Shown: positions 9,506-64,000, numbered from the stretch's first letter. The stretch: 64,000 nucleotides of DNA from an uncultured delta proteobacterium (GCA_963830115.1 CAWHLB010000015.1:129178-193177), one strand, 5' to 3'. Translations and numbers: made by a program. Notes: a model not told the origin generated them from the sequence alone.

Positions 9506-9714
9506 GCTCCCTCAGCCCAGAGCGGCCACGTCGGGTCGGAGAGGAGCCCGGAGGCGCACGAGAGGAACATGACAGAGCCGGCCGGAGCCAAGGCAACGGC
9601 TCGCCGTCTTCTCGGTCGCGTGAGCCCGAGAGATGGCCGAGCTCCGATCCCGAGAGCTCCCCATGCTCTGGTCCGCGGCAGAACGAGGCAGCCATGGTGT
9701 CCGCACGGCGGGCA

Positions 9715-10575: not shown

Positions 10576-10976
10576 GCGCGCCTCCCGCCGGAAGGTGATT
10601 CGCCGGCACGATCTGTCGGTCGCATGAGGTCCAAGGTCGGCTAAGGCGTCGTCGCAAATCGTCCACCACGACGTTCCAAGTCCGCGTCTCGAAATCGATT
10701 TCTTTTGATCCGCCGCTCGGTCCGTGGGCACGAGCCGACCTCGGAGGCCGGCTCGTGCGCGGGGGCGGTCCTCCTCGACACCTCCGCCGAGTCTCCGACC
10801 ATCACGGCAACGGGCCATGGGCCCGCGAATCAGGTGGAGACGGGTCGGACCGGCCGAGAAGCCGGTTCCCTTTGGTGCACGGGTGGCCATGGGCCCGGCG
10901 GGGCGGCGCCAAGCCCCTTCGACGTCGCCGTCTTCTGGATCCACGGGTTCGTACCCTCCTTGGCCGCGCGCCGAGA

Positions 10977-13007: not shown

Positions 13008-13060
13008 GATCTCATCACTCCCTTCCCTGTTCCCCCGGGGTCCCGGACTCGCCCGCCCGG

Positions 13061-13938: not shown

Positions 13939-14077
13939 GACTCGTTCCTTCCTCGTGCCGGTCGCCTCCCCGGCACTCTTCGGTCCATGTCCGCTGGCCG
14001 GTGCGACCTTCACGGCCGAACCACTTTTCTTTCGCGGAGGTCGCATGGGCCGAGTGAAACGGCTCACTCATGTGTGA

Positions 14078-37138: not shown

Positions 37139-39438
37139 CCTCGCGGCGATGGCGACCATGGCCGACGATGCGCGGTCGAGCTCGGGCCGTGAGCCCGACG
37201 CGCAGGCCCCGGGCGAGGTTGCTCGCTCTGGTCTTGGCGTTGGTCGGACTCGCCTGCCTCGTCTACGTGCCGCCCCTGCCTCACGCCCTTCGCCAGGGCG
37301 CAAGGGCCCCTCGCTCTGTTCGGTTCGTCGACGCCGAAGGGCGGGAGCTCTGCGAGACGACCGACGCCCGGGAGCAGTACAGGCGCTGGGCTCGCCTCGA
37401 CGAGATCCCGCGAACGCTGATCGACGCCGTCATCGCCTCGGAGGACGGCCACTTCCTCGAGCATCCCGGCGTCGACCCCATCGGTGTGGTGCGCGCGGCT
37501 TGGCTCGACGTGCGCCACCGACGGATCGTTTCGGGAGCCTCGACGATCACCATGCAGGTCGTCCGGATGGCCTTCGGATTGCCGCGGACGGTCATCGGCA
37601 AGATTGAACAGGGAGCGCTTGCGCTCTGGCTCGAACGGCGCATGAGCAAGCGCGCGATCCTCGAGGCCTATCTGAACCTCGCGCCCTTCGGGCGAAACAT
37701 CGTCGGGGTCGACGAGGCGGCACGGACCTTCTTTGGCAAGTCGCCGGCACACCTGACCCTCGGCGAGGCCGCCGCCCTCGCGACACTGCCGCGCGCGCCG
37801 ACCGGCTACGACCCGTACCGAAGGGTTGCATCTCTCATCCCACGGCGCGCACACATCTTGTCGCTCATGGCCGACGCGGGGACGATCACTCGCGCCGATG
37901 AGGCACGGGCGAGCGCGGAGCCTCTCCGGCTCTCGCACGCCTCCCGTCCCTTCGTGGCCCCGCATTTCGTGCTCGCTGCGCGCGCCGAGGCGCGTCGAGA
38001 CCGCATGCGCAAGGGTGCGGTCGCGGTCCGCACGACCCTCGATCCCCGGGCTCAGGCGGCAGCGGAGACGGCCTGCAGCTCTGGTCGTCGACCACCTCGA
38101 GGACCGGCACGTGACGAACTGTGCGGTCGTCGTCATGCGCGTATCGACGGGCGACATCCTCGCCATGGTCGGATCGGCCCACTTCTTCGATCCGGCCCAC
38201 GATGGGCAAGTCAACGGCGCGCTGGCCCTGCGCCAACCCGGAAGCGCCCTCAAGCCGTTCGTCTACGGGCTCGCGTTCGAACGGGGCCTCACCCCCGCCA
38301 CGGCGATCGCGGACGAAGCCGCGCGCTTCGCAACCGCAGAGGGCGACTTCATTCCCCGCAACTACGACAATCGCTTTCATGGCCCGGTACGCGCGCGGGA
38401 GGCGCTCGCCAACTCCTACAACATTCCGGCTGCGCGCGTGGCCGAGTCGGTGGGCCCGGGGGCGATCCTCGAGCGGCTTCACGCGCTCGGGTTCGGTTCG
38501 CTCGACGAGAGCGCAGACCACTATGGTGTCGCCATCGCGTTGGGAGACGGGGAGGTGCGGCTCGTCGAGCTCGCGGGGGCATACGCGACTATCGCCCGCG
38601 GTGGGGAATACCTGACACCGCGCATGGTCGCCGCGTTCGACCGGCGGACAGCGAGTGGGGCTCTCGTGACCAACCGCGTGCCGCGAGAGGCACCCCGCCG
38701 CGTCATGCCCAGAGCGGTCGCCTTTTTGCTCACGGACATTCTTTCGGATCGGAGCGCGCGTCTGCCGGCGTTTGGCGGATCGAGCGCCCTCGAGCTTCCG
38801 TTCCCGGCGGCCGCCAAGACGGGAACTTCGAAGAACTACCGAGACAACTGGACCATCGGGTTCGCGGGCGACGTGGTCGTGGCCGCGTGGGTCGGGAACT
38901 TCGACGGGTCACCGATGCGCGGCGTGAGCGGCGTGACTGGCGCGGCGCCCGTCTTCCGATTGGTCCTCGCCTCGGTGCTCGGCAGGGGCGCCCCGAGCGC
39001 GCGGGTCGCACCGCCCGCGCACGTGGTCTCGGCACGGATCTGCCCGCTTTCGGGGAGCTCGCTGGACCGGGCTGCCCCCACAGCATCGAGGAGTACTTCC
39101 TCGAAGGAACGGCCCCGACCACGCTGTGTCACCTCCAGGGCGCCGGCGCCGAGCCCCGGAACGACGGTCCCGTCGCGATCGTCGAGCCGCACGACGGCGA
39201 TCGATACATGCTCGATCCGACGCGGAGCGCAGCGAGTCAGGCAATTCCCATTCGCGCCCGTGGAACCGCCGTCGGCCGTCTCCGCCTGACGATGGATGGT
39301 CGCCCGCTCGCAACCGGCGTGAGCGAGGTGCTCTGGACTCCCGTCCCCGGCACGCACCGCATCCTGGCGAGCGACGGGGCTCACTCGACGTCGGTCGTGA
39401 TCCACGTCGGCGGCGTCACGCGATCGGCACGGAGATAG
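37135..39438 (+). CDS. pbpC: Penicillin-binding protein 1C (frameshifts near 38080 and 39055)
   Basis: Transglycosylase SEDGHF, GASTITMQ, YLNLAPFG; transpeptidase PGSALKPF, NSYN, AKTGTS in the 37826 frame; C-terminal domain back in the first frame; canonical partner of A2M. Confidence 0.9.
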   Translation: MTSRRWRPWPTMRGRARAVSPTRRPRARLLALVLALVGLACLVYVPPLPHALRQGARAPRSVRFVDAEGRELCETTDAREQYRRWARLDEIPRTLIDAVIASEDGHFLEHPGVDPIGVVRAAWLDVRHRRIVSGASTITMQVVRMAFGLPRTVIGKIEQGALALWLERRMSKRAILEAYLNLAPFGRNIVGVDEAARTFFGKSPAHLTLGEAAALATLPRAPTGYDPYRRVASLIPRRAHILSLMADAGTITRADEARASAEPLRLSHASRPFVAPHFVLAARAEARRDRMRKGAVAVRTTLDPRAQAAAETACSSGRRPPRGPARDELCGRRHARIDGRHPRHGRIGPLLRSGPRWASQRRAGPAPTRKRPQAVRLRARVRTGPHPRHGDRGRSRALRNRRGRLHSPQLRQSLSWPGTRAGGARQLLQHSGCARGRVGGPGGDPRAASRARVRFARRERRPLWCRHRVGRRGGAARRARGGIRDYRPRWGIPDTAHGRRVRPADSEWGSRDQPRAARGTPPRHAQSGRLFAHGHSFGSERASAGVWRIERPRASVPGGRQDGNFEELPRQLDHRVRGRRGRGRVGRELRRVTDARRERRDWRGARLPIGPRLGARQGRPERAGRTARARGLGTDLPAFGELAGPGCPHSIEEYFLEGTAPTTLCHLQGAGAEPRNDGPVAIVEPHDGDRYMLDPTRSAASQAIPIRARGTAVGRLRLTMDGRPLATGVSEVLWTPVPGTHRILASDGAHSTSVVIHVGGVTRSARR

Positions 39439-51162: not shown

Positions 51163-51465
51163 CTCCCGCCGGGGTATCGGAGTGGTCGCCTGCCCGGACG
51201 CCGGGAGGTCGTGGCCGTCGCGGCACCCGACGGGCATCTCGTCGCCGTCGCCCAGGCGAGGCGCCGCCTCGAGGGGATGGCCCGCCTCGCGGATCTGCTC
51301 CGCGGCAACGCGGGCCCTTACCGCTGAGGCGCCGCCGGACCGGGCTCATGTCCCCGTCGGATTGACGCGGGGAGGCTCAACGCGTGCGCCCGGGGCCGAG
51401 CGGAGGGAATTTTCGGACCGGTCGGGCCGTAGAACGACTCCGCGAGCCACGCGAACGGCTGCTCC

Positions 51466-51605
51466 ATGCGTGGTGTCGGGCGCGATGTCGTCTACTCCCT
51501 GACACTGGCCACGACGAAGCACGTGGTCCTGACCACCATCGCGCCCGTGTCCGGGAGCTACGACACGGTGCTCCACGTGCGCACGACCTGCACCGACGCC
51601 GCCCC
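51466..51605 (+). pseudogene. Isolated fragment of a myxobacterial extracellular beta-sandwich domain
   Basis: DVVYSLTL..VVLTT..SYDTVLHVRTTC matches a recurrent secreted-protein module but has no N- or C-terminal context. Confidence 0.45.
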
Positions 51606-51755
51606 ACCTGGCAGCGGGTTGAGCTCGCGGCGGCCGGGCGTGCGCGCGTGCTAGAAACGCGTCGGGGCGCAACCCCCGTCGCGATGTCGGAGAGCCCGCT
51701 CCGCGGGTCTGGTGCCGCCCCGTCACCTCGCCTAGTCTCAGACCGATCGAGTCGC

Positions 51756-54700
51756 ATGACGAGGCGCGAGCACCCTCAATCACGGCAGGACGCAACCCTC
51801 CTGGCGGTCATGGCCGGCCGCCTCGAGGCAGCACCCTACGCTCCGCTGTACACGTTCCTCGGACCCCGAGGAAACGAGGCGGACTCGGCCGATTGCGAGG
51901 AGGTCGTGCGGCGCGCGGCCGGCGCGGCCGACCTCCTCGAGGCGGCGGGCGTGGGGCCCGGGGATCGCGTTCTTCTGGTCTTTCCCCCGGACGGGCTCGA
52001 GCTCGTCACGAGCTTCTTCGGATGCCTGCTGCTCGGCGCCATCGCCGTCCCGGTCGCGAGCCCGGACCCGCGACACCTCGCGCAGGAGCTGCCCAAGCTC
52101 CGCCACATCGCGATGGACAGCGGCGCCCGCGTCGCCCTCACCCACGCCAAGTACCGAGCGCTCACGACGATGGCGTCGGTACGGGACGGTGTGAGCCGCC
52201 TCCTAAAGGGCCGCCCACCCGACAGGGAGCGCTGGCCGGAGGTCACATGGCTCCTGTCCGACCGCATCCGGCGGGCAGACGCCGGAGCGGCCGCCACACG
52301 TCTCGCGCACGGTGCGCGCACCCAGCGCCCGGACGACGTCGTCTACCTCCAGTACACCTCCGGCTCGACGTCGGCGCCGAAGGGCGTGGTCGTGCGCCAC
52401 CGGAACCTGCTGCACAACCTCTCGCTCATGGCGCGCAACACGCACGTCGACGCGGCGTCGGTTCTCGTGGGCTGGGTGCCCCTGTTCCACGACATGGGGC
52501 TGGCCGGCGGGATCCTCAACGCGATGAGCGCCGGGGCACGATGCGTCTTCTTCTCGCCCATGAGCTTCCTGGCCAATCCCCGCCTCTGGCTCGAGACCAT
52601 CGATCGCTACGGAGGCACGCACATCGCTGGGCCGAACTTCGGCTACGAGTACGTGCTGCGCGGGTTGCGCAACGGCGACGCCTTCGATCTGTCGACCCTG
52701 CGCGCCGCGCTCCAAGGTGGTGAGTCGATGCGGGTCACGACCATGTCGCGGTTCGAGGCGGCTTTCGGATCGATGGGCTTCGACGCCGCGACCTTCTGCA
52801 ACGTGTACGGCATGGCCGAGGCCGTGCTCTTCGTCACCGGTCAGGCGGGGCGAAGGCCGTCCCTGTTGCGCGGCGACCGAGCAATCATGGACCGGGAAGG
52901 CACCCTCGTCGCCCCCGCACCCGGTGCGCCGGCGGTGACACTGGTGGGGAGCGGCGTCCCGGACGCGGAGATGGGCGTGTCGGTGCTCGCCGTCAATCCC
53001 GCGACCCATCGGCCACGGCCGGACGGCGTCGTGGGCGAGCTGTGGGTGTCGAGCCCGAGCGTGTCGACGGGCTACTGGGGACGCAGGGAGGCGGAGAACG
53101 CGGCGGTCTTCGCTGCGCGCCTTTCGAGCGACGACGGTGGAGAGGACCCGCGACGATTCCTCCGCACGGGCGACCTCGGGGTGATCCACGAAGGCGAGGT
53201 GTTCGTCTGCGGCCGCCTCAAGGACCTCATCATCATCGGCGGTCGCAACATCCACCCCCAGGACCTGGAGGAGGCGGTAGTCGCCTCCGACCCGATCCTG
53301 CGGCCGGGCAACGCGCTCGCCTTCGGGGTCGAGGTGGACGGGACCGAGCGTGTGGTGGTGGTCGCGGAGGTGCGCAGGAAGCTCCTCGAGCGAAAGGACC
53401 TCCCCGCGCTCCTCACGCGCGCCATCGCCGCGATCCGAGCGGCGGTCGCGGCCCACGGCGGGGTCCAGTGCCACGACGTCCTGCTCCTTCGCCCGGACAC
53501 GATCCCGAAGACGACCAGCGGGAAGCTGCGCCGCCGGGAGTGCAAGGAGCGGTGGGCGGACGGCTCACTGCACGCGACCAATCGACGCCTCGGTCGTCCG
53601 GCACGGACGCCGGCACCGCCACGGGGTGAGGCCGCACCGTTCGCCGATCGCCCGAACGCGGGCGGCTCGGAGGGACGCGACGCCTACCTGCTCCGTCTGC
53701 TCCAGACCGAGGTCGCGGCGGCGCTGCACCTGGCCGACCCCGACGACGTGTCGGTGGATCGACCGCTCCTCGACCTGGGCCTCGATTCGCTCGGGTTGAT
53801 GGATCTGGGCAGGCGCCTCGAGGATCGGCTGGGGATGGCGGTGCCGCCGGCGAGCCTGAGCGATGCGTCGAGCCTGCGCGCGCTGGCCGACCTCCTCCTC
53901 GCGCGCTTCGAGCTGCCACCCGACGACGAGGGGCGGGCGCACCCGAGCCCGCACGCGGTCCACGCCGGAGACGTGCCGTTCACGGCCGGCCAGCTCGAGT
54001 CCCTGCGCCTAGGTCAGTGGAGCTGGTGGAACCGCGCCGCCCTCCTCACCGTCCATCGCCCGATCACCCCGGAGCAGCTCCACCGGGCGGCGTCGGTCCT
54101 GGTCGCCCACCACCACGCCCTGCGCCTCCGGTTCCACCGCGACGGCGACCGCTTCACCCAGCACTACGGAGACGTGGACGGAAGCTTCGCGGTCGAGTCG
54201 ACGTCCTTGACGGCGCCGGACGAGGGCACCCGCCGCGACGCGCTCCTTCGCGCGATGGACGTCCAGCACCGACGCGTGGACCTGGAGCGCGGCCCCGTCC
54301 TTCGCCTCCTGTTGGTGGAGGGGCTCGGGCCCACCCAATGCCTCTTCGTCACGATCAACCACCTGGTGATGGACGCCTTCACGCTCGGGATCCTCGTCGA
54401 CGAGCTCGACCACCTCTGCCATCTGGACGAGATGGAGAGGCCCCTGCGCCTCTCCCGGACCTCGACCCGGTTCGAGGACTACGCCCGTTGGGTGAACGAC
54501 TTCGCGCGGGGAGCCGCCGTCGACGACCTGGTCTTCTGGCAGGCGCAGCTCGACACGCCGCCGCCCTGCGCCTACGACTCGCGCGTCCAGGAGCCCGTCC
54601 GGATGGCCGACCTGGCGAGCGGCGGTGAGCGCTTCACGGAGGCGGAGACGCGCGCGCTCCGGGAGGTCTGCACCGAGGGCCGTCGCGCACCCATCGCGAC

Positions 54701-55286
54701 GACGCTGCTCGCGGCGTTGGTGCGGACGGCTCGAGGTCGGTGGGGGTGCGGGCGCCTGACGGTCAAGCTCTCGAGCTCGGGCAGGCAAGCCGCGGTGCAC
54801 GGGCTCGACGTGTCGCGGACGTTGGGTGAGATGGACTGCGCGTTCCCGCTGGCCGTCTCCCACACCGCATCCGAGCGCCCCATCGAAACCGTCGCGGCGG
54901 TGCGCGATCGCCTGGCGTGCGTCCCCTCCGCGGGGATCTCGTTCGACGCCCTCGCGCACCTGAACGACGACCCGGCGGTGCGGGACCGCATTGCCAGCGC
55001 ACCCGCGCCGACGCTATGGTTCAACTTCGCGGGGGAGGTGCCGTCTCGCAGCCGCCCGACCGGCCTCTTCTCCGTCCTCGAAGGTCCGCTGGGTGCCATG
55101 TGGGATCCCCGAGCCGGCGTGAAACAGCCTCCATTGCTGGTCGAGTGCTCCATCGTGGGGGGCGCTGCGCGTACGCACTGGTTCTATTCGCGGGAGCACC
55201 TGGGCTGGTCCGAGTCGGAGATCGACCTGTGGCGCGCGCGCTTCCGTGAGGAAGTGCTCGCCCTCGCACGAGCTGGAACGAGTTAG
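51756..55286 (+). CDS. Fatty acyl-AMP ligase - carrier protein - condensation-domain protein
   Basis: FAAL: YLQYTSGSTSAPKGV, WVPLFHDMGL, YGMAEA, LRTGDLG, GRNIHPQDLE, IPKTTSGK; ACP LGLDSL; C-superfamily domain HHALRLRF, INHLVMDA, FNFAG; no thioesterase. Start may be 51684. Confidence 0.9.
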   Translation: MTRREHPQSRQDATLLAVMAGRLEAAPYAPLYTFLGPRGNEADSADCEEVVRRAAGAADLLEAAGVGPGDRVLLVFPPDGLELVTSFFGCLLLGAIAVPVASPDPRHLAQELPKLRHIAMDSGARVALTHAKYRALTTMASVRDGVSRLLKGRPPDRERWPEVTWLLSDRIRRADAGAAATRLAHGARTQRPDDVVYLQYTSGSTSAPKGVVVRHRNLLHNLSLMARNTHVDAASVLVGWVPLFHDMGLAGGILNAMSAGARCVFFSPMSFLANPRLWLETIDRYGGTHIAGPNFGYEYVLRGLRNGDAFDLSTLRAALQGGESMRVTTMSRFEAAFGSMGFDAATFCNVYGMAEAVLFVTGQAGRRPSLLRGDRAIMDREGTLVAPAPGAPAVTLVGSGVPDAEMGVSVLAVNPATHRPRPDGVVGELWVSSPSVSTGYWGRREAENAAVFAARLSSDDGGEDPRRFLRTGDLGVIHEGEVFVCGRLKDLIIIGGRNIHPQDLEEAVVASDPILRPGNALAFGVEVDGTERVVVVAEVRRKLLERKDLPALLTRAIAAIRAAVAAHGGVQCHDVLLLRPDTIPKTTSGKLRRRECKERWADGSLHATNRRLGRPARTPAPPRGEAAPFADRPNAGGSEGRDAYLLRLLQTEVAAALHLADPDDVSVDRPLLDLGLDSLGLMDLGRRLEDRLGMAVPPASLSDASSLRALADLLLARFELPPDDEGRAHPSPHAVHAGDVPFTAGQLESLRLGQWSWWNRAALLTVHRPITPEQLHRAASVLVAHHHALRLRFHRDGDRFTQHYGDVDGSFAVESTSLTAPDEGTRRDALLRAMDVQHRRVDLERGPVLRLLLVEGLGPTQCLFVTINHLVMDAFTLGILVDELDHLCHLDEMERPLRLSRTSTRFEDYARWVNDFARGAAVDDLVFWQAQLDTPPPCAYDSRVQEPVRMADLASGGERFTEAETRALREVCTEGRRAPIATTLLAALVRTARGRWGCGRLTVKLSSSGRQAAVHGLDVSRTLGEMDCAFPLAVSHTASERPIETVAAVRDRLACVPSAGISFDALAHLNDDPAVRDRIASAPAPTLWFNFAGEVPSRSRPTGLFSVLEGPLGAMWDPRAGVKQPPLLVECSIVGGAARTHWFYSREHLGWSESEIDLWRARFREEVLALARAGTS

Positions 55287-55293
55287 CGCTTCC

Positions 55294-56553
55294 ATGGCGG
55301 ATCGAGCGACCACATTTCGCGAAGGGACGTCGGCGACCACGACTCGAAGGAGCGGCCGCGCCGCGTCGAGCGAGCACGCGCCCGGGCCGTTCCGGGGGCT
55401 GGCGGACCGGGCCTTTGCCATGGCCTTCCAGCAGATCTTCACCTTCCCCCTCCTCTACGAGGATTCGGAGGTGGACAACCAGGTCCTCGGCCTCCGTCCC
55501 GACTCCCGGGTCCTTTCGGTGAGCGGGGCCGGTTGCGGCGTGGCCGGGCTCCTGGCCGCCCATCCGGCGCGCATCGACGCGGTGGACACCAACCGCCATC
55601 ACTTGGCCCTGACCGCGCTCAAGGTCGCGGCGGCTCGCCGGATGTCGTCCCATGACGAGCTGTACCAGCTCCTCGGACGGGGCCGACACGACCACCCGGC
55701 GCGCATCCTCGGGCCGCTCATGAACGGCTTGCCGGCGTGGGTGGGGCGCTACTGGAACGAGAACCACCGCCGCTTTCGACGCAACGTCTATGGCGAAGGG
55801 CTGGTCGGCAGCTTTCAGAAGTGGCTGCGGCACGAGACCGGCCTCGACGCCGGGTTCCTTCGCGCCATGCAACCCCTGGCCATCGAGGATCGTCTGGCAC
55901 ACCTTTCGCCGGTGCTCGACGCGGTGCGGTGCTCGCGGTTGTTCCGCGTCGTCGCCAACAGCCCGCTCTTCCTGCTCGGCCACGGCATCAACTTCGAGCA
56001 ACGGCAACGCAACCTCCGTGCCCATCAGGCCCGGAGCATGGTGGAGGTCGTGACCGCGCACCTCGAGCGCCTGGCCTACACCGACCTCGAGACCAACTGG
56101 TTCGTATGGGTCGGCCTGACCGGCGCCTTCAACCACGATCACCCCGACGCCGTGCCTCCCTACCTGCGCGCCGAGAGCCACAGGAGGTCGCGCGAAGCGC
56201 CCACCGACGTGGTCTTCCACCACCTCCCCCTAAAGCGCGTGCTCGCCGCGGCGGCGCCCGGACGCTGGTCCCACTTCTCGCTGTGCGACGTGCTGGACTG
56301 GATGCCCGCAGACACCCAGCGTCGCCTGCTGCAGCACATCGCCCATGTCGGTGGCCCGGGTGCCGTCGTCCTGACGCGCAGCGTGGAAGATGCGTGCGTC
56401 GTCGATCGCCTCGGTCTCGACGGGATGTACGAACGGCTCGAGCCGCGCTCGAGCGAGGCCGGCCAGAGGGAACGGACGAGGCTCTACGCGCGCGTCGGTG
56501 TCTACCGCGTGACCGGCGGACCGAACGGATCGACGGCGAGCGCTGGCGCATGA
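55294..56553 (+). CDS. btaA: SAM:diacylglycerol 3-amino-3-carboxypropyl transferase (DUF3419, BtaA-like)
   Basis: YEDSEVD, SVSGAGC, IDAVDTNRHHLAL..LK, NWF, PPYL, LCDVLDWM, GAVVLTRS, ERTRLY. Confidence 0.85.
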   Translation: MADRATTFREGTSATTTRRSGRAASSEHAPGPFRGLADRAFAMAFQQIFTFPLLYEDSEVDNQVLGLRPDSRVLSVSGAGCGVAGLLAAHPARIDAVDTNRHHLALTALKVAAARRMSSHDELYQLLGRGRHDHPARILGPLMNGLPAWVGRYWNENHRRFRRNVYGEGLVGSFQKWLRHETGLDAGFLRAMQPLAIEDRLAHLSPVLDAVRCSRLFRVVANSPLFLLGHGINFEQRQRNLRAHQARSMVEVVTAHLERLAYTDLETNWFVWVGLTGAFNHDHPDAVPPYLRAESHRRSREAPTDVVFHHLPLKRVLAAAAPGRWSHFSLCDVLDWMPADTQRRLLQHIAHVGGPGAVVLTRSVEDACVVDRLGLDGMYERLEPRSSEAGQRERTRLYARVGVYRVTGGPNGSTASAGA

Positions 56554-57203
56554 CCGCCGTGTCGGCACCGCCGGAGGGAAGCCGCGCCGAGGCGCAGGCG
56601 GCCCATCGCGCGTTCCTCGACCGCTACTATCGAGCCACCCATCGCGTCTACGACGTCTCGCGCAAGTACTTCCTGTTCGGACGCGACGCGGTCCTCGATC
56701 GCCTCCTCGACGACGACTGGAGCACGCTCGTGGAGATCGGCCCCGGCACCGGCCGCAACCTGCACCGCCTGCACCGCCGCCGGCCCGAGGCGCGCCTCGG
56801 CGGGCTCGAGGCGAGCGACGTCATGCTCTCCCATGCGCGACGCCGCTGCCCATGGGCGCGCTTCGAGCCCGGCCTCGCCGAGGACGGTGACCTGCGGGCC
56901 GTCCTCGGCACGCCCCCGGAGCGCATCCTGATCTCCTACAGCATGTCCATGTTCCAGGCCCCGGGGCGCGCCATCGACAACGCCCTCGGACAGCTCGCTC
57001 CGGGCGGCGAGCTGTGGGTCGTGGACTTCTCCGACCTCGCGCGGACACCCACCTTGCCGCGAACGGCGATGCTCCGATTCCTCTCGGCCTTTCACGTCCG
57101 CCCCGTCGCGGACGACCTCCTGCGCGACCGTGGCGCGCGCCATCTCGAGCACGGCCCCGGCCGCTACTTCGTCGTCGCGCGGTTCGTCGCCGAGGGCGGG
57201 TGA
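56550..57203 (+). CDS. btaB: SAM:diacylglycerylhomoserine N-methyltransferase (BtaB-like)
   Basis: LDRYYR..VYDVSRKYFLFGRD, EIGPGTGRNL, SYSMSM, LAPGGELWVVDF, LSAFHV; ATGA overlap with btaA. Confidence 0.88.
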   Translation: MTAVSAPPEGSRAEAQAAHRAFLDRYYRATHRVYDVSRKYFLFGRDAVLDRLLDDDWSTLVEIGPGTGRNLHRLHRRRPEARLGGLEASDVMLSHARRRCPWARFEPGLAEDGDLRAVLGTPPERILISYSMSMFQAPGRAIDNALGQLAPGGELWVVDFSDLARTPTLPRTAMLRFLSAFHVRPVADDLLRDRGARHLEHGPGRYFVVARFVAEGG

Positions 57204-58054
57204 GCTCCCCTCGGGCGGCGCTCGGTGTCACGCAACGGGCTCGCCCTGTCCTATCGCGTCGTCGGACGGGGCTCCCCTGTCCTGTTCATCGCGGGCTATG
57301 GTCGATCCGGGAGCAGCTGGCTCCCGTGGCTGGAACAGGTGGGCCCCCTGCCCTTCCGGGTCGTGCTCATGGACAACCGAGGCACAGGCGAATCGACGGT
57401 GTCGAAGCGGCCCTACACCATGGCGACCCTGGCCGACGACGCGGCGACGGTGCTGCGCGATGCCGTCGGCGGCGAGCCCGCCATCGTGGTGGGCCACTCG
57501 ATGGGCGGGATGGTCGCGCAGCATGTGGCCCTCCGGCACCCGGAGCAGGTGGCGGGGATGGTGCTGTCGTCCAGCTCCGCGCGCGTGGAGATTTTCCGCC
57601 CGGCCTCGGTGCGCTCCCTGCCCCTGACCGTGCTGGCGACCCTCTCGCGCGACGTGCGGGTGTGGCAAATGTGCGACGGACTGCTCGTGCACGAGCACAG
57701 GCGCGGAGCCGCGGCCCACGCGCTCTTGTCCCCGCTGCGCCAGTTACAGAAGGCCGAGCCCTACTCGCGCCTGAACTCCGCCATGCAGCTCTGCGCCATG
57801 TCCTTCCACCGGACGCACCGACGCCTCGGTGCCGTGCGTGTCCCCGTCGAGGTGGTGGTCGGTGCCGGCGACCGCGTGCTGTCGCCCGAGGCTCCCATCG
57901 CCTCGCGCGAAACTTCCCCGATGCACGCCTCACGGTCCTTTCGAACGTGGGTCACGCGATCCCCTTCGAGCAACCCCTCGCGATCGCGAAGGCCCTCACG
58001 CGGCTCCGCGAGAGGATCACGGCGGCGCCGGGCGCGGTGGCACCTCGAGGCTAG
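57200..58054 (+). CDS. Alpha/beta hydrolase (frameshifts near 57225 and 57890)
   Basis: DNRGTGES, GHSMGG, GAGDRV; catalytic His (VGHAIPFEQP) in the neighbouring frame; GTGA overlap with btaB stop. Confidence 0.85.
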   Translation: MSSPRAALGVTQRARPVLSRRRTGLPCPVHRGLWSIREQLAPVAGTGGPPALPGRAHGQPRHRRIDGVEAALHHGDPGRRRGDGAARCRRRRARHRGGPLDGRDGRAACGPPAPGAGGGDGAVVQLRARGDFPPGLGALPAPDRAGDPLARRAGVANVRRTARARAQARSRGPRALVPAAPVTEGRALLAPELRHAALRHVLPPDAPTPRCRACPRRGGGRCRRPRAVARGSHRLARNFPDARLTVLSNVGHAIPFEQPLAIAKALTRLRERITAAPGAVAPRG

Positions 58055-59738
58055 CGAAGAAGCGAGCGCGACAGAGCAGCGGCACCAGCAGGAGGCTGTG
58101 CAGCAGGAGCTGCTTTGCGGCCCCGCGCTCGCCCTGGTACGAGCTCATGTACGTGCGCTCACGAAACGCCACATGGGACGCCTCCTGGGCCAGGGTGCCG
58201 AAGACGAGCAGCCCCGCGTAGAGGGGCCACCCGAGGGGCGGCAGGGCGAGGTAGATGCCCAGCACCGCGCCGGCGTAGAGGGCCGACATGGAGGCGGTGT
58301 GATCGGGGGCGGTGTAGTAACAGAAGAAGACGTAGTAGACCGCGAGGCAGACCGCCGCGGCCGCGGGCGTCCAGCCGAGCGCACGCGCGCCGACGCCGAC
58401 GAGCCCCAGCACGCCGAGCAGGCCGAGCGCCGTGGTGAGCAGGTGGACCGAGACGTTGCCCGGTCTCCGATGGAAGCGTGAGAACGCCTCGTAGGTCTCT
58501 TCGAAACGATAGGTGCCCCCCACGTGCCAGTCGCCGATCTCCTGGCAGAGGACGATCAGGTAGCAGGCCATGTGGGCGATCAGCAGGGGCCACCACGCCG
58601 CTCGGAACGTCGCGTTCATCATGAGCCCGGCCAAGCCGATCCACTTGCCGACGATCATGGGGTGGGGAATCACCGAGTAGGGGAACCCCGAGGTCTTTTC
58701 TTTCGGGACGACACCGAGCTCGACGCCGAAGTAGGTCCGGTCGGCGCCGAGCCGGAGGAAGGCGAGCCCGGACAGCCCGAAGCCGAGGGCGGCGACGCCC
58801 AGCGACGGGATGTCGAGGGGCACGCCCGCGTACTCGTAGAACAGGAAGCCGAGGGCCAGGGTCTGGAACAGGGAGGCGTCGCGCCGAAGCTTGCCGGGCT
58901 CGACCGCACGAAACGTGTAGGCGAGCAGATACAAAAGGTAGTGAACGAAGCTGAACAGGTACACCCGCTCGACGGGATGGCCCCACGTCACGCCCCCGAG
59001 AAGCAGGATCACCAAGAGGTTCAGGACGCCGGCGTGCTCGTTGAACAGGCCGTAGAGAAAAGTGCTCGCGTTGACGAGAACGCCCAGCAGCTTGCCGAGC
59101 CAGGTGCGGGGGTTCTTGCTCGCGAGGAAGAGCTGCCGTGCCCTCCGGTTGTACGCCGCGTTCCAGGCCGCGAAGGCCGCGTGCACGGGCCGGAGCCATC
59201 GCGGCGCGACCGCGTAATGCACCTTGAGACAGATGCGGCTGTCGGTCAGCAGCTCCTGTGCGTCACCATCCTTGACGATGTGGTGGAGGTCACGGTTGTA
59301 ATCGAACCAGCAAAACTGTCCCGAGGCGAGCGTGGTCCGGGACTTGTGGTTTTCGAAGACGGTGGTGACGCGGTCACTGCCGCGGATGACGATGAGACAC
59401 CGGAGCAGGGTGAGGAACGGGATGAAGCCGAAGGGCCCGTCGATGTGCCGCTGCAGGAAGACATAGTCGGACCCCTTGGCCCCCATGTGGGTCACGTAGA
59501 CCTCGTTCATGGCGTCGACGTGATGGACGTCGCATCCGGGGAAGGCCTCGCGGATGCTGTCCCGGATGGCGGTCGAGTCCTTGAGCTGACCGAACGCCTC
59601 GCGTTCCCTCGGGGGCAGGTCCGCCTCCCAGAGGTGGAGCGTCTCGTTGGGGTCGTGCTGCTGCTGCACCGTGAAGTCCAGCATCGTCTGGATGTGGCTG
59701 CCGGTGGGCTCCTCGACCAGGCCGATTCCGGGTTTCAT
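58017..59738 (-). CDS. Three-domain membrane protein: HxD...H metal-dioxygenase-like + PEMT phospholipid methyltransferase + Mpo1/DUF962-like
   Basis: N-terminal GSDYVF..HIDGP..FDYNRDLHHI..LKVHY; central LGADRTYFGVELG..GFPYSVIPHPMIVG; C-terminal FHRRPGNVSVH..AQEASHVAF.E; single uninterrupted frame. Confidence 0.75.
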   Translation of the reverse strand: MKPGIGLVEEPTGSHIQTMLDFTVQQQHDPNETLHLWEADLPPREREAFGQLKDSTAIRDSIREAFPGCDVHHVDAMNEVYVTHMGAKGSDYVFLQRHIDGPFGFIPFLTLLRCLIVIRGSDRVTTVFENHKSRTTLASGQFCWFDYNRDLHHIVKDGDAQELLTDSRICLKVHYAVAPRWLRPVHAAFAAWNAAYNRRARQLFLASKNPRTWLGKLLGVLVNASTFLYGLFNEHAGVLNLLVILLLGGVTWGHPVERVYLFSFVHYLLYLLAYTFRAVEPGKLRRDASLFQTLALGFLFYEYAGVPLDIPSLGVAALGFGLSGLAFLRLGADRTYFGVELGVVPKEKTSGFPYSVIPHPMIVGKWIGLAGLMMNATFRAAWWPLLIAHMACYLIVLCQEIGDWHVGGTYRFEETYEAFSRFHRRPGNVSVHLLTTALGLLGVLGLVGVGARALGWTPAAAAVCLAVYYVFFCYYTAPDHTASMSALYAGAVLGIYLALPPLGWPLYAGLLVFGTLAQEASHVAFRERTYMSSYQGERGAAKQLLLHSLLLVPLLCRARFFASLEVPPRPAPP

Positions 59739-60023
59739 CGGAGGCCCTCCCCGGGCGACGAAGGCGGCCGCCCGGATGGACGGGGGCGCGCGCGAGGCGG
59801 TCCGTGGTGCTGCTCCGAGCCCTCCCAATCACGTGCACGCCCTCGGCTCGGCACCCGCCGACGGTACCACGGAGGGAAGAGGTCGCGACGCAGAGCGGGC
59901 GTGGATGCCATCGAGGGTCCGGCGGCTCGGAGCACCGATTTTCCTTTCCAGCGTTCCTGCGACTTTATACCATCGCGCGTGCGTCTGGCCCGGTCGCCGA
60001 AGTTGGAACAGACGAAGTCATGC

Positions 60024-61676
60024 ATGCAGCGGCCAACTGAAACGCGGGCGCCTGACACCGGTGTGCGCTCGCCTTTCGGCCAGCAGGACATCGTCGACGC
60101 CGTTCGGCGAACACGGGAGTCGTTGCAGCTGCTCCGAGACCCGCTCACTGGCACGATGGGCGTCGCCGCCGCGGGAGCCGCCGACCCGTCGCCGGCACGC
60201 GCCCGTGCGAGCGGATGGGAGCCGATGGGCGTGCTGCCGCCCCTCTACCCGGAGTGGCTCGGGGACCGCGCCTTCGCGGAGGCCCACGCCGTGCGCTTCC
60301 CCTACGTGGCCGGCTCCATGGCCAACGGCATCGCCACGCCTGCGCTCGTCGTGGCCATGGCGCGTGCCGGCATGCTCGCCTTCTTCGGCGCGGCCGGGTT
60401 GTCCCTCGCGCGCGTCGAGGCCGGGGTCGACGAGATCGCGCGGCGCCTCGAGGGGCGGCCCCTCGCCTGGGGCGCCAACCTCATCCACTCGCCCCAGGAG
60501 CCGGCCCTCGAAGAGGCGGTCGCCGACCTCTACGTCCACAGGGGCGTGCCGCGGGTGGAGGCCTCCGCCTTCATGGCGCTCGCGCCGAGCGTGGTCCGCT
60601 ACGCCGCCGCCGGTCTCCACGTCGACGCCCAGGGCGAGATACGACGGCGCCACCGGGTCCTCGCGAAGGTCTCCCGCGCCGAGGTCGCCCGTCCGTTCAT
60701 GTCGCCGGCGCCGGCGGAGATGCTGCGCGCCCTGGTCGCGTCGGGACGCCTGTCCGCAGAGGAGGCTCGCCTCGCGGCCCTCGTGCCGGTGGCGACCGAC
60801 ATCACGGTGGAGGCGGACTCGGGAGGCCACACCGACAACCGCCCCCTCGCCGCGCTCTTGCCGACCCTGTTCCGGCTCCGGGACGAAATCGAGTCGACCC
60901 TCGGCAGGCCCGGCACGATCCGTATCGGCGCCGCCGGCGGGCTCGGCACCCCCCAGGCCGTCGCCGCGGCCTTCGCCCTCGGCGCCGCCTACGTGATGAC
61001 CGGCTCGATCAACCAGGGCGCCCTCGAGTCGGGTTTGTCCGACGAGGGCAAGCGGATGCTCGCCGGCGCGGGGATCGCCGACGTCGCCATGACCGCTGCC
61101 GCCGACATGTTCGAGCTGGGGGTCAAGCTGCAGGTGCTCGCGCGCGGCACCATGTTCGCCGTGCGCGCCAACAAGCTCTACGAGACCTACCGTGCACACC
61201 CCGCCCTCGACGCGCTGCCCCCGGCCCTGCGCGCCGAGCTCGAGCAGAGGGTCTTCGGCGCGTCCCTCGACACTGTGTGGGAAGATACAAAGTCCTTCTG
61301 GCGCGATCGCGACCCCGAGCAAGTCGCGCGCGCGGAGGCCGATCCGAAGCACCGGATGGCGCTCGTCTTTCGCTGGTACCTCGGGCTGTCGAGCCGCTGG
61401 GCCATCGTGGGGGAGGCCTCGCGCCGCGCGGACTTCCAGATCTGGTGCGGGCCGGCCATGGGCGCCTTCAACGACTGGGTGAAGGGCTCGTTTCTCGAGG
61501 CGCCCGAGGAGCGCACCGTCGTCCAGATCGCCCACAACCTCCTCGAAGGGGCGGCCGTGATGACGCGCGCCCAGCAGCTTCGGAGCCACGGCGTGCCGGT
61601 GCCGGCGCGCGCATTCCAGTTTCGGCCGCGACGGCTCGCGTATGGCCCTGCGACCGCAGAACGGGAGGATCGATGA
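60024..61676 (+). CDS. pfaD: PfaD-family enoyl reductase (myxobacterial Pfa1)
   Basis: YVAGSMANGIA, NLIHSP, AKVSRAEVA, EADSGGHTDNRP, GAAGGLGTP, AADMFELG, QIWCGPAMGAFN. Confidence 0.95.
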   Translation: MQRPTETRAPDTGVRSPFGQQDIVDAVRRTRESLQLLRDPLTGTMGVAAAGAADPSPARARASGWEPMGVLPPLYPEWLGDRAFAEAHAVRFPYVAGSMANGIATPALVVAMARAGMLAFFGAAGLSLARVEAGVDEIARRLEGRPLAWGANLIHSPQEPALEEAVADLYVHRGVPRVEASAFMALAPSVVRYAAAGLHVDAQGEIRRRHRVLAKVSRAEVARPFMSPAPAEMLRALVASGRLSAEEARLAALVPVATDITVEADSGGHTDNRPLAALLPTLFRLRDEIESTLGRPGTIRIGAAGGLGTPQAVAAAFALGAAYVMTGSINQGALESGLSDEGKRMLAGAGIADVAMTAAADMFELGVKLQVLARGTMFAVRANKLYETYRAHPALDALPPALRAELEQRVFGASLDTVWEDTKSFWRDRDPEQVARAEADPKHRMALVFRWYLGLSSRWAIVGEASRRADFQIWCGPAMGAFNDWVKGSFLEAPEERTVVQIAHNLLEGAAVMTRAQQLRSHGVPVPARAFQFRPRRLAYGPATAEREDR

Positions 61677-64000
61677 GCGACGGGATCGAGAGTGCACGTG
61701 CCGCATCGGGGCGCGTGCCGCCCATCGCCGTCGTGGGCGTGGGTGCCCACTTCCCGGGGTCGACCGACGTGCTCGGCTTCTGGCGCGACATCCTGGAGGG
61801 CCGCGACCGGCTGACGGAGGTGCCGCGGACCCATTGGCTGTCGTCCGACTACTTCGATGCGACGCCGGGCACGCCCGACAAGGTGTACGCGACGCGGGGC
61901 GGCTTCCTCCCGTCCGTGCCCTTCTCGCCGGTGGACTTCGGCATGCCACCGAACACGCTCCCCGCGACCGACTCGGCCCAGCTCCTCGCCCTCCGCGTCG
62001 CCAAGCGCCTCCTCGAAGATGCGACGCGCGGTCGCTTCGCGTCGGTGGACCGGAGCCGCATGAGTGTCGTTCTCGGCGTGGCCTCGGCCACCGAGCTCGT
62101 GGGCCACATGGCGGGCCGCCTGCAGCTGCCCGTGTGGAAGCGCGCGCTACGGGAGGCCGGGCTCGCGGACGGAGAAGTCGAGCGGGTCAGTCAGATCCTG
62201 GCGGCCTGCTACACGCCCTGGCAGGAGAGCACGTTCCCCGGGCTCCTCGGCAACGTGGTCGCCGGTCGCGATCGCCAACCGGCTGGACCTCGGGGGAACC
62301 AACGCCGTCGTCGACGCGGCGTGCGCCAGCTCGCTCGCGGCCATCGACATCGCCATGAACGAGCTCGCCCTCGATCGGGCGGACCTGGTGGTCACGGGCG
62401 GCGTCGATGCGTTGAACGACATCTTGATGTTCATGTGCTTCGCCCAGACCGGCGCCCTCTCGAAGAGCGGCGATTGCCGCCCCTTCTCGGACGAGGCCGA
62501 CGGCACCATGCTCGGCGAGGGCGTCGGCATGCTCGCCCTCAAGCGGCTCAGAGACGCCGAGCGCGACGGCGATCCCGTCTATGCGGTGCTGCGCGGGATG
62601 GGCACCTCCTCCGACGGACGCGCGAGCAGCATCTACGCGCCTCTGCCCCGAGGTCAGGCCGCCGCCCTGCGCCGCGCCTACGAGCGCGCCGGCTATGGCC
62701 CGGCGACGATCGAGCTGCTCGAGGCCCACGGCACGGCAACGCCTGTCGGCGACGCGGCGGAATTCGAGTCGACGCGAACCGTCTTCGAGGAGGACGGCGC
62801 GCCGCGGCGACGCTGCGCGCTCGGCTCGGTCAAGTCGCAGATCGGCCACACCAAGGCGGCGGCAGGCGCGGCGGGCGCTGATCAAGACCGTGATGGCGCT
62901 CCATCACCGCACGCTTCCACCGACGATCAAGGTCCGGGCACCGAACCCCGCCCTGCGCATCGAGGAGAGCCCCTTCTACCTCAACACGGAAGCGCGCCCG
63001 TGGATCGCACCCCCCGACCGTCCGCGCCGCGCCGGGGTCAGCGCCTTCGGCTTCGGCGGCACCAACTTCCACCTCACGCTCGAAGAGTACCGCGGCACGG
63101 GCCCGCGCCCGCCGCGCCTGCGGACCCTGCCCTCCGAGCTCTTGCTCTTCGGGGGCGCCGATGCGGGCGACCTGGCCGCCCAGTGCCGCGAGGCCGTGGA
63201 CCTGGTCGGAGCGCCGGGCGCCATCGCGCACCTCGCCCGGCGGACCGCAGCGCGAGCTCGACGCGACCGCCGCCCGCGCGCCTCGCGATTGTCACCGACG
63301 ACGACGCGGCGCGGGACAAGCTCGCCCAGGCGACGGCGGCCCTCGAGGCGACCACCTCGTCCCACTTCTCCTTGCCGCAGGGTATCCACTTCGGCAGCGG
63401 ACCGGCCGCCGGCGGGGTCGCGTTCCTGCTCCCGGGTCAGGGCAGCCAGTACACGGGCATGGGGCGCGACCTGGGGCTCCACTTCGACGCGGCGCGCGCG
63501 GTGTGGGATCGCGCCGCCGCCCTCGACTTCGGCGATGGCTTGCACCGGCGAGTCTTTCCGCCGCCGCCCTTCGGGCGAGAGGAGCGCGAGGAGGCGGAGC
63601 GACGTCTGCGCGCGACCGAATGGGCCCAGCCCGGCATCACCGCCATGAGCCTCGGCATGCTGGCGCTGCTCCGATTGGTGGGCCTCGCGCCCATGTGTGT
63701 TGGAGGTCATAGTCTCGGCGAGCTCACGGCGCTCTTCGCGGCGGGCGTGCTCGATGAGCGGGGCGCCGTGGGGGTGGCGCGCCGGCGCGGCGAGCTGATG
63801 GCGAAGGCCAGCGAGGTCCCTGGCGCCATGACGGCGGTGTTCGCGGACGTGGACACGCTGCGCGCGCTCCTGTCTTCGTGGAAGAGCGACGTCGTCGTGG
63901 CGAACCACAACGCGCCCGGGCAGGCTGTGCTCTCGGGCGCGGTCGCCGCCATCGAAGAGGTCGAGCGCCGCCTCGCCGGGGAGGCGATCACGACGCGGCG
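61673..64000 (+). CDS. pfaA: Iterative type I PUFA synthase, KS-MAT region (PfaA / myxobacterial Pfa2); 3'-partial, frameshifts near 62268, 62876, 63246, 63277
   Basis: PIAVVG, FPGLLGNVVAGR-IANRLD, DAACASSL, EAHGTAT, KSQIGHTKAAAG, SAFGFGGTNFH; AT LPGQGSQY, GHSLGEL, ANHNAP; ATGA overlap with pfaD. Confidence 0.92.

Follow-up and report, generated by a model that had tools for sequence, protein, structure and literature searches.

In a 64,000-nucleotide stretch of DNA from an uncultured delta proteobacterium (GCA_963830115.1, CAWHLB010000015.1:129178-193177), called the window throughout this report at its full length, we examined a minus-strand gene whose product appears to join three enzyme modules in one polypeptide: an oxygenase domain, a PEMT-type methyltransferase domain, and a membrane module resembling yeast Mpo1 (Table 1). 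This fusion gene belongs to a family that is tied to btaA and btaB, whose products make betaine lipids, and the protein is probably a tailoring enzyme of this pathway. The open frame at the locus extends from 58017 to 59828 (minus strand, 603 amino acids from a TTG codon). Within it, an ATG at 59736-59738 gives a 573-amino-acid product with the N terminus MKPGIGLVEE, and the same MKPG start is used by all close homologues. The DNA in this region is about 70% GC, and long open frames occur by chance on several strands. The GC content of the frame by codon position is 0.67/0.46/0.90, and because the high value at third positions (GC3) spans the entire frame without a break, we conclude that the frame is coding. 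Homologues align end to end with 63-70% identity, and the architecture is repeated in 32 close homologues and many distant ones. Two trivial origins were thereby rejected: a chance open frame in high-GC DNA is contradicted by the GC3 of 0.90 and the end-to-end alignments, and a fusion created by assembly is contradicted by the shared architecture. The gene is real and intact.

Table 1. Features of the fusion gene and of the genes around it (positions counted from the first nucleotide of the window).
Feature	Position	Strand	Residues	Basis or remark
Fusion gene, 573 codons plus stop	58017..59738	minus	1-573	Stop codon 58017-58019; module order oxygenase, PEMT-like, Mpo1-like
Shine-Dalgarno-like run GGGGAGGG	59745..59752	minus		7 nt upstream of the ATG; read from the sequence
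Soluble beta-rich domain, Fe(II)/2-oxoglutarate oxygenase fold	59202..59738	minus	1-179	Foldseek, VIA-align
Proposed metal-binding HxD	59439..59447	minus	H98-I99-D100	Conservation; weak PhyH alignment
Proposed distal His (59283-59285) and proposed binder of the 2-oxoglutarate C5-carboxylate (59235-59237)	59235..59285	minus	H152, R168	Conservation, model
Linker: long helix, then about four membrane helices	58800..59201	minus	180-313	Model helices, hydrophobicity, Lys/Arg counts
PEMT-type (PF04191) core	58539..58799	minus	314-400	Pfam; LGxDRTYFGxELG, FPYxxIPHPMIxG, Q399-E400
Mpo1/DUF962-like membrane module	58020..58526	minus	405-573	H423-x4-N428-x3-H432, Q518-x3-H522-x4-E527; sub-cut-off Pfam, hhalign
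Fatty-acyl-AMP-ligase-like adenylation, carrier, and condensation protein	51384..55286	plus		Pfam AMP-binding, PP-binding, Condensation
DUF3419 (BtaA-family) gene, divergent member	55246..56553	plus		PF11899, 167.4 bits (cut-off 28.2)
Small class-I S-adenosylmethionine (SAM) methyltransferase, BtaB-like by position	56550..57203	plus		Methyltransf_25, 24.6 bits (below cut-off 27); start approximate
Alpha/beta-hydrolase	57225..58054	plus		Convergent with the fusion gene, 3' overlap ~38 nt; frame change near 57887
PfaD-family enoyl reductase	60270..61676	plus		Divergent from the fusion gene; TIGR02814, 631.6 bits (cut-off 449); true start may lie upstream

An AlphaFold2 model of the whole protein, made with 131 relatives, has a predicted local distance difference test score (pLDDT) of 94.7 and a predicted template modeling score (pTM) of 0.92. 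In the model, a beta-rich domain (residues 1-179) is joined by a long helix to a membrane part of about a dozen helices. Conservation counts given below refer to an alignment of 131 family sequences, and those for the C-terminal module refer to an alignment of 24 sequences from forms that carry it. A preliminary description of the locus had proposed a gene in one clean frame that fuses an HxD...H dioxygenase-like domain, a PEMT methyltransferase, and an Mpo1-like domain. All of the motifs it quoted are present in the translated gene. HIDGP corresponds to H98-I-D100-G-P and NRDLHHIV carries H152 in the N-terminal part, LGADRTYFGVELG...GFPYSVIPHPMIVG spans residues 330-364 of the PEMT part, and FHRRPGNVSVH (H423-x4-N428-x3-H432) and AQEASHVAFRE (Q518-x3-H522-x4-E527) lie in the C-terminal part. 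Across the family, these motif residues are kept far more than their surroundings. The three-module anatomy was borne out as well, by the oxygenase fold of the first module, a score above the Pfam cut-off for the second, and profile comparison for the third.

Structural searches point to the Fe(II)/2-oxoglutarate oxygenases for the N-terminal domain. With the whole model as query, the best Foldseek matches are PHD2 (6zbo_A, E 9.6e-4) and AndA (5zm2_C, E 1.0e-3), followed by OkaE, AsqJ, and prolyl hydroxylases. VIA-align ranks AviO1 first for this domain (4xaa_A, Z 12.8, root-mean-square deviation 3.0, 166 residues aligned), with ColD, AsqJ, EvdMO1, and HalB next and human phytanoyl-CoA hydroxylase PhyH (2a1x_A) at Z 11.1. 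A total of 95 chains reach Z of at least 8; among the matches listed, most are such oxygenases, and all lie on model residues 1 to about 200. AlphaFold2, Foldseek, and VIA-align thus concur on a double-stranded beta-helix, and judged by the fold of its model, the N-terminal third of the protein is a member of this oxygenase superfamily. The HxD and distal His that led the preliminary description to call this domain dioxygenase-like are near-invariant (H98 in 106/106 sequences, D100 in 105/106, H152 in 113/115). Conservation is equally strong at R168 (117/117) and at K172 (118/119) and H174 (116/118), which lie on the same strand as R168 (model strands 152-156 and 167-179).

H98, D100, and H152 are likely, but not proven, to form the metal-binding triad. 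A comparison by hhalign of the oxygenase domain with 17 PhyH-family proteins from related genomes gave a probability of only 10%. In that single weak alignment, H98-x-D100, H152, and R168 fall on the HxD, distal His, and Arg of PhyH. No Pfam family matches residues 1-300 at E of 1 or less, NCBIfam has no family for the protein, and searches of the PDB with the protein sequence or with a profile of the oxygenase domain returned nothing relevant. In the Protein Atlas, the N-terminal part finds 2OG-FeII_Oxy clusters at a score of 0.88, which, being below 0.9, counts as a lead only. By these searches the oxygenase domain is a sequence orphan that belongs to no family with a curated model.

The second module is the only one with a Pfam family above its cut-off, as the preliminary description's PEMT-type assignment would lead one to expect. 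PF04191 matches residues 314-400 with 27.2 bits against a cut-off of 25, and a Pfam scan of 50 relatives found the PEMT family at E of 0.01 or less in 44 and at or above the cut-off in 34. The core motif residues are nearly fixed, with G331 in 120/120 sequences, H359 in 115/118, P360 and M361 in 118/120, and E400 in 116/119. When modeled alone, the membrane part (residues 205-573) has a pLDDT of 95.6, and Foldseek found no match to it at E of 1e-3 or less. Its best VIA-align match is the eukaryotic isoprenylcysteine carboxyl methyltransferase ICMT (5vg9_A, Z 6.9, 115 residues aligned with 16% identity, on residues 292-408), with steroid 5-alpha-reductase SRD5A (7c83_A, Z 6.5) and Ma-ICMT (4a2n_B, Z 4.8) also among the matches. 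The model's resemblance to ICMT, at scores within the noise for helical proteins, is consistent with the Pfam assignment, rather than an independent proof of it. Loops rich in Lys and Arg (331-359, 403-425, and 525-539) alternate with short uncharged loops. Taken with the helix count, these loops would set both His clusters and the SAM-type loop, and with them all three sets of motifs in the membrane part, at the cytoplasmic face of the membrane, where the soluble oxygenase domain also lies.

For the third module, the Mpo1-like assignment of the preliminary description is carried by profile comparison and by two relatives that exceed the Pfam cut-off (24.7 and 24.2 bits), while the protein itself falls short of it: PF06127 matches residues 411-471 with 13.6 bits (E 0.073) against a cut-off of 24. 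The first of those relatives is among the 50 scanned, 11 of which match Mpo1-like at E of 0.01 or less. In forms with the C-terminal module, H423, H432, Q518, H522, and E527 are invariant, and N428 is present in at least 90%. In an hhalign comparison with a set of 20 genuine DUF962 proteins, drawn from members of the window's order, the C-terminal module of the protein gave a probability of 73.7% (E 2.9e-5, 37 columns, covering the first motif only), and a PEMT-region control gave 0.5%. Distant relatives (~36% identity, one of them named a Myxococcales metagenome-assembled genome (MAG) protein) are without the C-terminal 170 residues and instead bear the H-x4-N-x3-H ... Q-x3-H-x4-E pattern on an N-terminal extension. 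This N-terminal module of the permuted forms matches DUF962 at 94.1% (E 1.2e-7, 65 columns, both His motifs), and local hhalign finds the N- and C-terminal Mpo1-like modules homologous to each other (99.9%, E 1e-32). The Protein Atlas gives the C-terminal part a score of 0.84, again a lead only, with one neighbor cluster that carries PF06127 on 11% of its members. No structure stood out as a match to the Mpo1-like part in VIA-align.

A HMMER scan of 1.84 billion representatives recovered 599 family clusters (50% identity) at E of 1e-3 or less, and the best 150 of these, some of which are fragments, were labeled by hmmsearch with profiles of the three modules. The order Mpo1-oxygenase-PEMT is the most common (73 of the 150, plus 2 in which the PEMT match is split), followed by oxygenase-PEMT (26) and by the order seen in the window, oxygenase-PEMT-Mpo1 (16, plus 1). 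PEMT alone (13), oxygenase alone (11), and other module orders (8) account for the rest. The oxygenase and PEMT modules are the constant pair, to which an Mpo1-like module is often, but dispensably, added. That the modules have been fused repeatedly and in varying order suggests that they serve one pathway. In the order of Rhodopirellula baltica (Pirellulales), four genomes have adjacent but separate genes for the PEMT and oxygenase parts, and a PEMT-then-oxygenase fusion occurs in one. Overall, split or reversed forms of this pair were seen in these five genomes and in one genome of the window's phylum; in three of the genomes with such forms, the PEMT and oxygenase parts lie divergently beside btaA.

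BtaA and BtaB make diacylglyceryl-homoserine and then diacylglyceryl-trimethylhomoserine (DGTS). To our knowledge, only these two steps to DGTS are known. To place the family relative to this pathway, we used 42 related loci from Micromonosporaceae, Myxococcota, Planctomycetota, and one BD1-7 gammaproteobacterium. Of the 42 loci, 29 have a BtaA-like gene no more than 4 kb away, 31 have a BtaB-like gene at such a distance, and 31 have at least one of the two; in 14, a gene for a PlcP-like metallophosphoesterase is found no more than 5 kb away. In R. baltica, in Stieleria bergensis, and in a MAG of Rubripirellula, Pfam matches bear out an operon of phosphoesterase, DUF3419 (380-407 bits), methyltransferase, and family gene, in that order, and in the Rubripirellula MAG this operon adjoins a gene for a phosphate-selective porin. 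At the BD1-7 locus, the order is family gene, DUF3419, methyltransferase, and in all, the operon order is borne out by Pfam in five loci. The DUF3419 proteins found with the family are of two types. Those of the window, Myxococcota, and Micromonosporaceae are divergent (167-200 bits), those of Planctomycetota are canonical (380-407 bits), and the identity between the two types, as seen for the gene at 55246-56553 of the window and that of R. baltica, is only ~23-26%.

Co-occurrence agrees with position. Among 121 genomes of the Pirellulales order, the family is present in 9 and PF11899 in 44, and all 9 family carriers have PF11899, compared with 35 of the 112 noncarriers. The hypergeometric P for this overlap is 6e-5, and relatedness among the genomes makes this value overstate the significance. 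Five of the 9 carriers have the two genes within ~2.5 kb of each other. PF11899 was also found in 5/5 carrier genomes tested from four phyla, including Plesiocystis pacifica, where it is on a contig other than that of the family gene and no btaA lies within 10 kb of the latter. In these samples, the family never occurs without btaA and is not required for btaA; it behaves as an accessory of the btaA/btaB pathway. That the family is genetically tied to btaA/btaB is therefore strongly supported by both position and co-occurrence. This is in keeping with the preliminary description, which had taken the protein for a lipid-tailoring enzyme linked to btaAB and had called for a phylogenetic profile against these genes: the link is seen in four phyla, and the profile against btaA places every carrier in the Pirellulales sample within the PF11899-bearing set.

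The strict nesting of the family in btaA-bearing genomes would also be expected if the protein served betaine-lipid turnover. Among Fe(II)/2-oxoglutarate oxygenases, TfdA breaks ether bonds, and the gamma-butyrobetaine and trimethyllysine hydroxylases act on trimethylammonium compounds; the oxygenase module could hydroxylate an ether-linked or ammonium-bearing carbon such that the head group is released and diacylglycerol is recycled. We regard this as very unlikely. The gene directly follows the biosynthetic genes on the same strand (phosphoesterase-btaA-btaB-family gene), where a degrading enzyme makes little sense, and the conserved SAM-methyltransferase module would have no part in cleavage.

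Public records lend themselves to a simpler explanation, as they name relatives "methyltransferase," "phospholipid methyltransferase," or "phosphatidyl-N-methylethanolamine N-methyltransferase," and the PEMT family is the sole one to pass its Pfam cut-off. Perhaps only the PEMT module is active, as an ordinary N-methyltransferase of phospholipids or diacylglyceryl-homoserine, and the other two modules are structural. We find this highly improbable because the HxD, His, and Arg residues of the oxygenase and the His, Gln, and Glu residues of the Mpo1-like module are near-invariant across phyla, algae, and viruses. Moreover, members with the oxygenase only exist (11 of the best 150 clusters, as well as most giant-virus loci), and a separate BtaB-like methyltransferase is present in 31 of the 42 loci.

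The surroundings of the fusion gene in the window bear on which part of the lipid might be modified. The gene is convergent with a row of four genes and divergent from the PfaD gene and from a PfaA-like ketosynthase/acyltransferase (KS/AT) gene that begins at ~61700. The first of the four encodes an adenylation, carrier, and condensation protein whose best NCBIfam matches are fatty acyl-AMP ligase (FAAL) subfamilies, all below their cut-offs. Orthologues of the divergent DUF3419 gene adjoin family members in Micromonosporaceae and Myxococcota loci, and the methyltransferase gene is kept beside the BtaA-like gene in related loci. Homologues 64-67% identical to the protein occur in Asanoa, Actinoplanes, and Paractinoplanes with the same gene set, and there the pfa genes lie on the other side. 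FAAL-type and alpha/beta-hydrolase neighbors were seen only in the window's genome and in Micromonosporaceae, and PfaD/KS neighbors are found in 3 of the 7 Micromonosporaceae loci. The position between btaAB and pfa noted in the preliminary description is therefore correct, with the DUF3419 and methyltransferase genes on one side and the PfaD and PfaA-like genes on the other; the tie to pfa holds in the window but is local, as elsewhere it extends only to those three loci.

Two of these neighbors have disturbed reading frames. Relative to Paractinoplanes and Asanoa homologues, the hydrolase follows one frame to ~57887 and another to ~58006, and the GC3 signal changes frame there as well; the change is either a real frameshift or an assembly indel. 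The PfaA-like gene (~61340-64000, plus strand) aligns to its Paractinoplanes homologue as four pieces on three frames, with changes near 62270, 62870, and 63200-63270, and its Pfam KS N-terminal domain is split over two open frames. This gene is either decayed or affected by several assembly indels within 2 kb.

The neighbors just described, together with the PhyH match, raise the possibility that the protein acts on acyl chains rather than head groups, as an alpha-oxidation and methylation machine. A PhyH-like 2-hydroxylation would be followed by Mpo1-like loss of C1 as CO2, which leaves an odd-chain acid, and by ICMT-like methylation of a carboxylate. Oxygenases that 2-hydroxylate lipid-bound acyl chains are exemplified by LpxO and OlsC, and a phytanoyl-CoA 2-hydroxylase is among the structural matches (2a1x_A, as given above). 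Mpo1 itself is described in the excerpted text of PMC10398889 as a one-step 2-hydroxy fatty acid dioxygenase of yeast, and the family gene sits beside FAAL-like and Pfa-type synthase genes in the window and in Micromonosporaceae. The combination of 2-hydroxylation and one-carbon shortening put forward in the preliminary description would be possible. We consider an acyl-chain substrate unlikely, since PhyH is one of many oxygenase matches at similar Z, the partner kept across phyla is btaA/btaB whereas the FAAL and pfa neighbors are confined to one lineage and the window's genome, and forms without an Mpo1-like part are common (26 of the best 150 clusters). In addition, all putative active sites would lie at the cytoplasmic membrane surface rather than deep in the bilayer, a placement that fits a head-group substrate better than the deep acyl region.

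Elsewhere in the window, two FeeM-type N-acyl amino acid synthase genes (9715-11151 and 13015-14067, minus strand) flank a gene with ThiF and nitroreductase domains (10977-13418), and this region, 9715-14067, may be another lipid or small-molecule cluster. A 1441-amino-acid frame (5180-9505, minus strand) joins HlyD-type membrane-fusion domains to a full AcrB-type resistance-nodulation-division pump. These are normally two genes, and the frame reflects either a fusion or a lost stop codon. The window also holds an outer-membrane factor gene and, at 32057-39438 (plus strand), an alpha-2-macroglobulin gene (1693 amino acids) followed by a PBP1C-type transglycosylase gene, a pairing that is usual in Gram-negative bacteria. 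The pump, outer-membrane factor, and alpha-2-macroglobulin/PBP1C genes mark the source of the window as Gram-negative.

The family is present in only 2 of 201 sampled genomes of the window's own phylum (the window's genome assembly is 6.9 Mb and 70.8% complete), and this rarity points to horizontal spread. Its named eukaryotic members are Pseudopedinella elastica and Florenciella parvula, both dictyochophyte stramenopiles. A profile search from 24 eukaryote- and virus-type seeds, together with cluster look-ups, found no other named eukaryote; searches of this kind require shared 5-residue words. Several of the eukaryote-type sequences open with a hydrophobic stretch that resembles a signal peptide. 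An AT-rich branch of the family consists of giant-virus metagenome assemblies (29 IMG/VR loci, GC 0.22-0.48). Three of these loci align over almost the whole protein, four align with low identity to an AT-rich query through to its C-terminal end, and most of the remainder match the oxygenase part only.

A further possibility, raised in the preliminary description, is that the protein is the missing enzyme that converts DGTS to DGTA, or diacylglyceryl-hydroxymethyl-trimethyl-beta-alanine. In such a reaction, the Mpo1-like module might take off the original carboxyl group, and the methyltransferase and oxygenase might install and oxidize a one-carbon unit or otherwise recarboxylate the head group. 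The proposal is attractive in that passages of PMC10685587 treat DGTA as a presumed product of DGTS, made by decarboxylation and then recarboxylation through an enzyme and a mechanism not yet known, and state that nothing is known of the synthesis of diacylglyceryl-carboxyhydroxymethylcholine (DGCC). Likewise, the excerpted text of PMC4796936 reports DGTA in the marine heterotrophic-bacterial size fraction under phosphorus stress, with its bacterial synthesis awaiting characterization. Family genes are linked with btaA/btaB and plcP-like genes in marine Planctomycetota, Myxococcota, and one gammaproteobacterium (BD1-7); the family is also present in marine stramenopile algae, and one of its modules resembles an enzyme, Mpo1, whose action is one of oxidative decarboxylation (PMC10398889). 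A literature search, for which subscription journals were largely out of reach, found no paper that assigns a DGTA enzyme.

An informative group for this question is Chloracidobacterium, for which DGTA and lyso-DGTA are reported as the predominant polar lipids in the available text of PMC12816986. Among 401 high-completeness Acidobacteriota genomes, 3 (each 3.7 Mb) carry the gene for the Fenna-Matthews-Olson (FMO) protein. These genomes are presumably Chloracidobacterium, since FMO marks that genus. All three have PF11899, as a plain methyltransferase-btaA pair, and none matches either the whole-protein profile or the oxygenase-domain profile of the family, while R. baltica and Plesiocystis, used as positive controls, did match. 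A motif scan of 185,579 species genomes likewise returned no record from such an FMO-bearing acidobacterium. On their other replicon, the same three genomes have a PEMT-family gene that stands alone, in keeping with the methylated phosphatidylethanolamines of these organisms. In one of them, the methyltransferase-btaA pair (7911-10012, minus strand, within the stretch 797000-814000 of its contig) is on the smaller replicon with no further lipid gene adjacent. If the lipid of this organism is DGTA, then either an extra step is encoded elsewhere or BtaA and BtaB suffice there.

These findings weaken the DGTS-to-DGTA suggestion. The FMO-bearing acidobacteria have btaA/btaB and no family member, and among named eukaryotes only Pseudopedinella and Florenciella have homologues; searches limited to shared 5-residue words found none under the name of a diatom, a brown alga, or a haptophyte. 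The Mpo1-like module is missing from about a quarter of relatives, and the methyltransferase has no obvious role in an isomerization. Because no member turned up in the Chloracidobacterium-type genomes or, by those word-limited searches, in the classical DGTA algae, we lowered our estimate for this reading and now see it as unlikely. It would require that the family provides the DGTS-to-DGTA route in marine Planctomycetota, Myxococcota, some gammaproteobacteria, dictyochophytes, and giant viruses, and that a different route, or a relative diverged beyond recognition by these searches, serves Chloracidobacterium and the classical DGTA algae, an arrangement to which we assign little probability.

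On balance, and with confidence only somewhat better than even, we favor the hypothesis that the protein is an accessory (tailoring) enzyme of the BtaA/BtaB pathway that oxidizes and methylates the lipid head group. The DGTS head group is an ether-linked homoserine betaine whose alpha-carboxylate lies at the membrane surface. Oxygenases with this fold often hydroxylate carbons next to carboxylates and ammonium groups, and the substrate of ICMT is the alpha-carboxylate of a prenylcysteine, which the DGTS alpha-carboxylate resembles by analogy. The protein would be an inner-membrane enzyme with several catalytic centers at the cytoplasmic face, and its substrate would be the DGTS head group or the unmethylated precursor, diacylglyceryl-homoserine. 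The N-terminal module would use Fe(II), 2-oxoglutarate, and O2 to hydroxylate or otherwise oxidize a carbon of the homoserine-derived head group, and the PEMT/ICMT-like module would methylate either the head-group carboxylate or the newly formed hydroxyl, with SAM as donor. Where present, the Mpo1-like module could perform a second O2-dependent step like that of Mpo1, such as an oxidative cleavage or a decarboxylation next to the carboxylate. The product would be a betaine-lipid derivative not described before. Substrate, sites of attack, sequence of reactions, and product are all inferred in this scheme. The lipid backbone may be unusual in the window's genome and in Micromonosporaceae because the pathway there clusters with genes for the FAAL-carrier-condensation protein, the hydrolase, and Pfa-type synthases.

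Several results weigh against the proposal of a head-group tailoring enzyme. No btaA or btaB gene lies within 4 kb in 11 of the 42 loci, of which six have flanks of 4 kb or more in each direction and five are too short on one side to judge, and none lies within 6 kb in any of the 29 giant-virus loci. The frame changes in the hydrolase and pfaA genes suggest that the local cluster may be partly decayed or misassembled. With regard to the modules, the assignment of the metal triad draws on conservation, on the fold, and on an alignment of little statistical weight, so that the triad is likely but not proven; the structural scores of the membrane model against ICMT and SRD5A (Z 6.9 and lower) are within the noise expected of helical proteins; and, as noted, the Mpo1-like module of the protein itself scores below the Pfam cut-off. 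Finally, neither experiments on carrier organisms nor data on their lipids came up in a literature search. We view the gene as a well-supported lead to a further betaine-lipid step rather than as a solved function.

Betaine lipids stand in for phospholipids when phosphorus is scarce, and they are a major lipid class at sea. The family described here is widespread (599 clusters), combines two predicted oxygen-dependent metal centers with a membrane methyltransferase, and is tied to btaA/btaB. This predicts a betaine-lipid modification that is absent from current lipid maps, and the family offers a handle to find it. The copies in dictyochophyte algae and giant viruses suggest that the modification matters in host-virus lipid remodeling. 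In light of the three modules, the public name "phospholipid methyltransferase" covers at best a third of what the protein appears to be.

Each module is of a known enzyme kind. For the three-part combination, no published description of either the architecture or the family was found in a literature search from which subscription journals were largely missing. The N-terminal module shares its fold (residues 1 to ~200, Z 11-12.8) with Fe(II)/2-oxoglutarate oxygenases such as AviO1 (4xaa), AsqJ (6k0e), PHD2 (6zbo), and PhyH (2a1x), and conserved in it are an HxD, a His further along, and, on the strand after that, an Arg. However, it is without detectable sequence kinship to these enzymes and, unlike any matched oxygenase, is fused to a polytopic membrane methyltransferase. 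The second module resembles the PEMT/ICMT superfamily (PF04191; 5vg9, 4a2n) in that it passes the family cut-off; ICMT is also the top structural match of the protein's membrane part, at a score within the noise. We take its FPY..IPHPM..G ... QE motif to be the place where PEMT/ICMT enzymes bind SAM. It differs from that superfamily in its marginal score, in being embedded between two other catalytic modules, and in having btaA/btaB rather than phospholipid synthesis genes as genomic partners. For this module, ICMT-like carboxyl methylation is as plausible as PEMT-like N-methylation. The third module can be compared with yeast Mpo1/DUF962 (PF06127), an Fe2+-dependent 2-hydroxy fatty acid dioxygenase, as the H-x4-N-x3-H and later Q/G-x-x-H motifs align. 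In contrast to Mpo1, the module has an inserted helix pair and is never free-standing in the family, where it occurs at either end of the protein or is missing.

At the level of gene clusters and pathways, two further systems offer parallels. The Planctomycetota loci have the same three genes in the same order as the plcP-btaA-btaB phosphorus-stress clusters of marine bacteria ("type 1" in the excerpted text of PMC4796936), and they differ from the clusters portrayed there by the addition of the family gene as a fourth member. Oxygenase and methyltransferase steps also decorate another phosphorus-free membrane lipid, the ornithine lipids. There, OlsC, OlsD, and OlsE are hydroxylases, and OlsG is an N-methyltransferase. 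That ornithine lipids are both hydroxylated and N-methylated is stated in the abstract of PMC12971839. The ornithine-lipid enzymes act on a different lipid class and are unrelated proteins, whereas in the protein encoded in the window the corresponding activities would be fused in one polypeptide.

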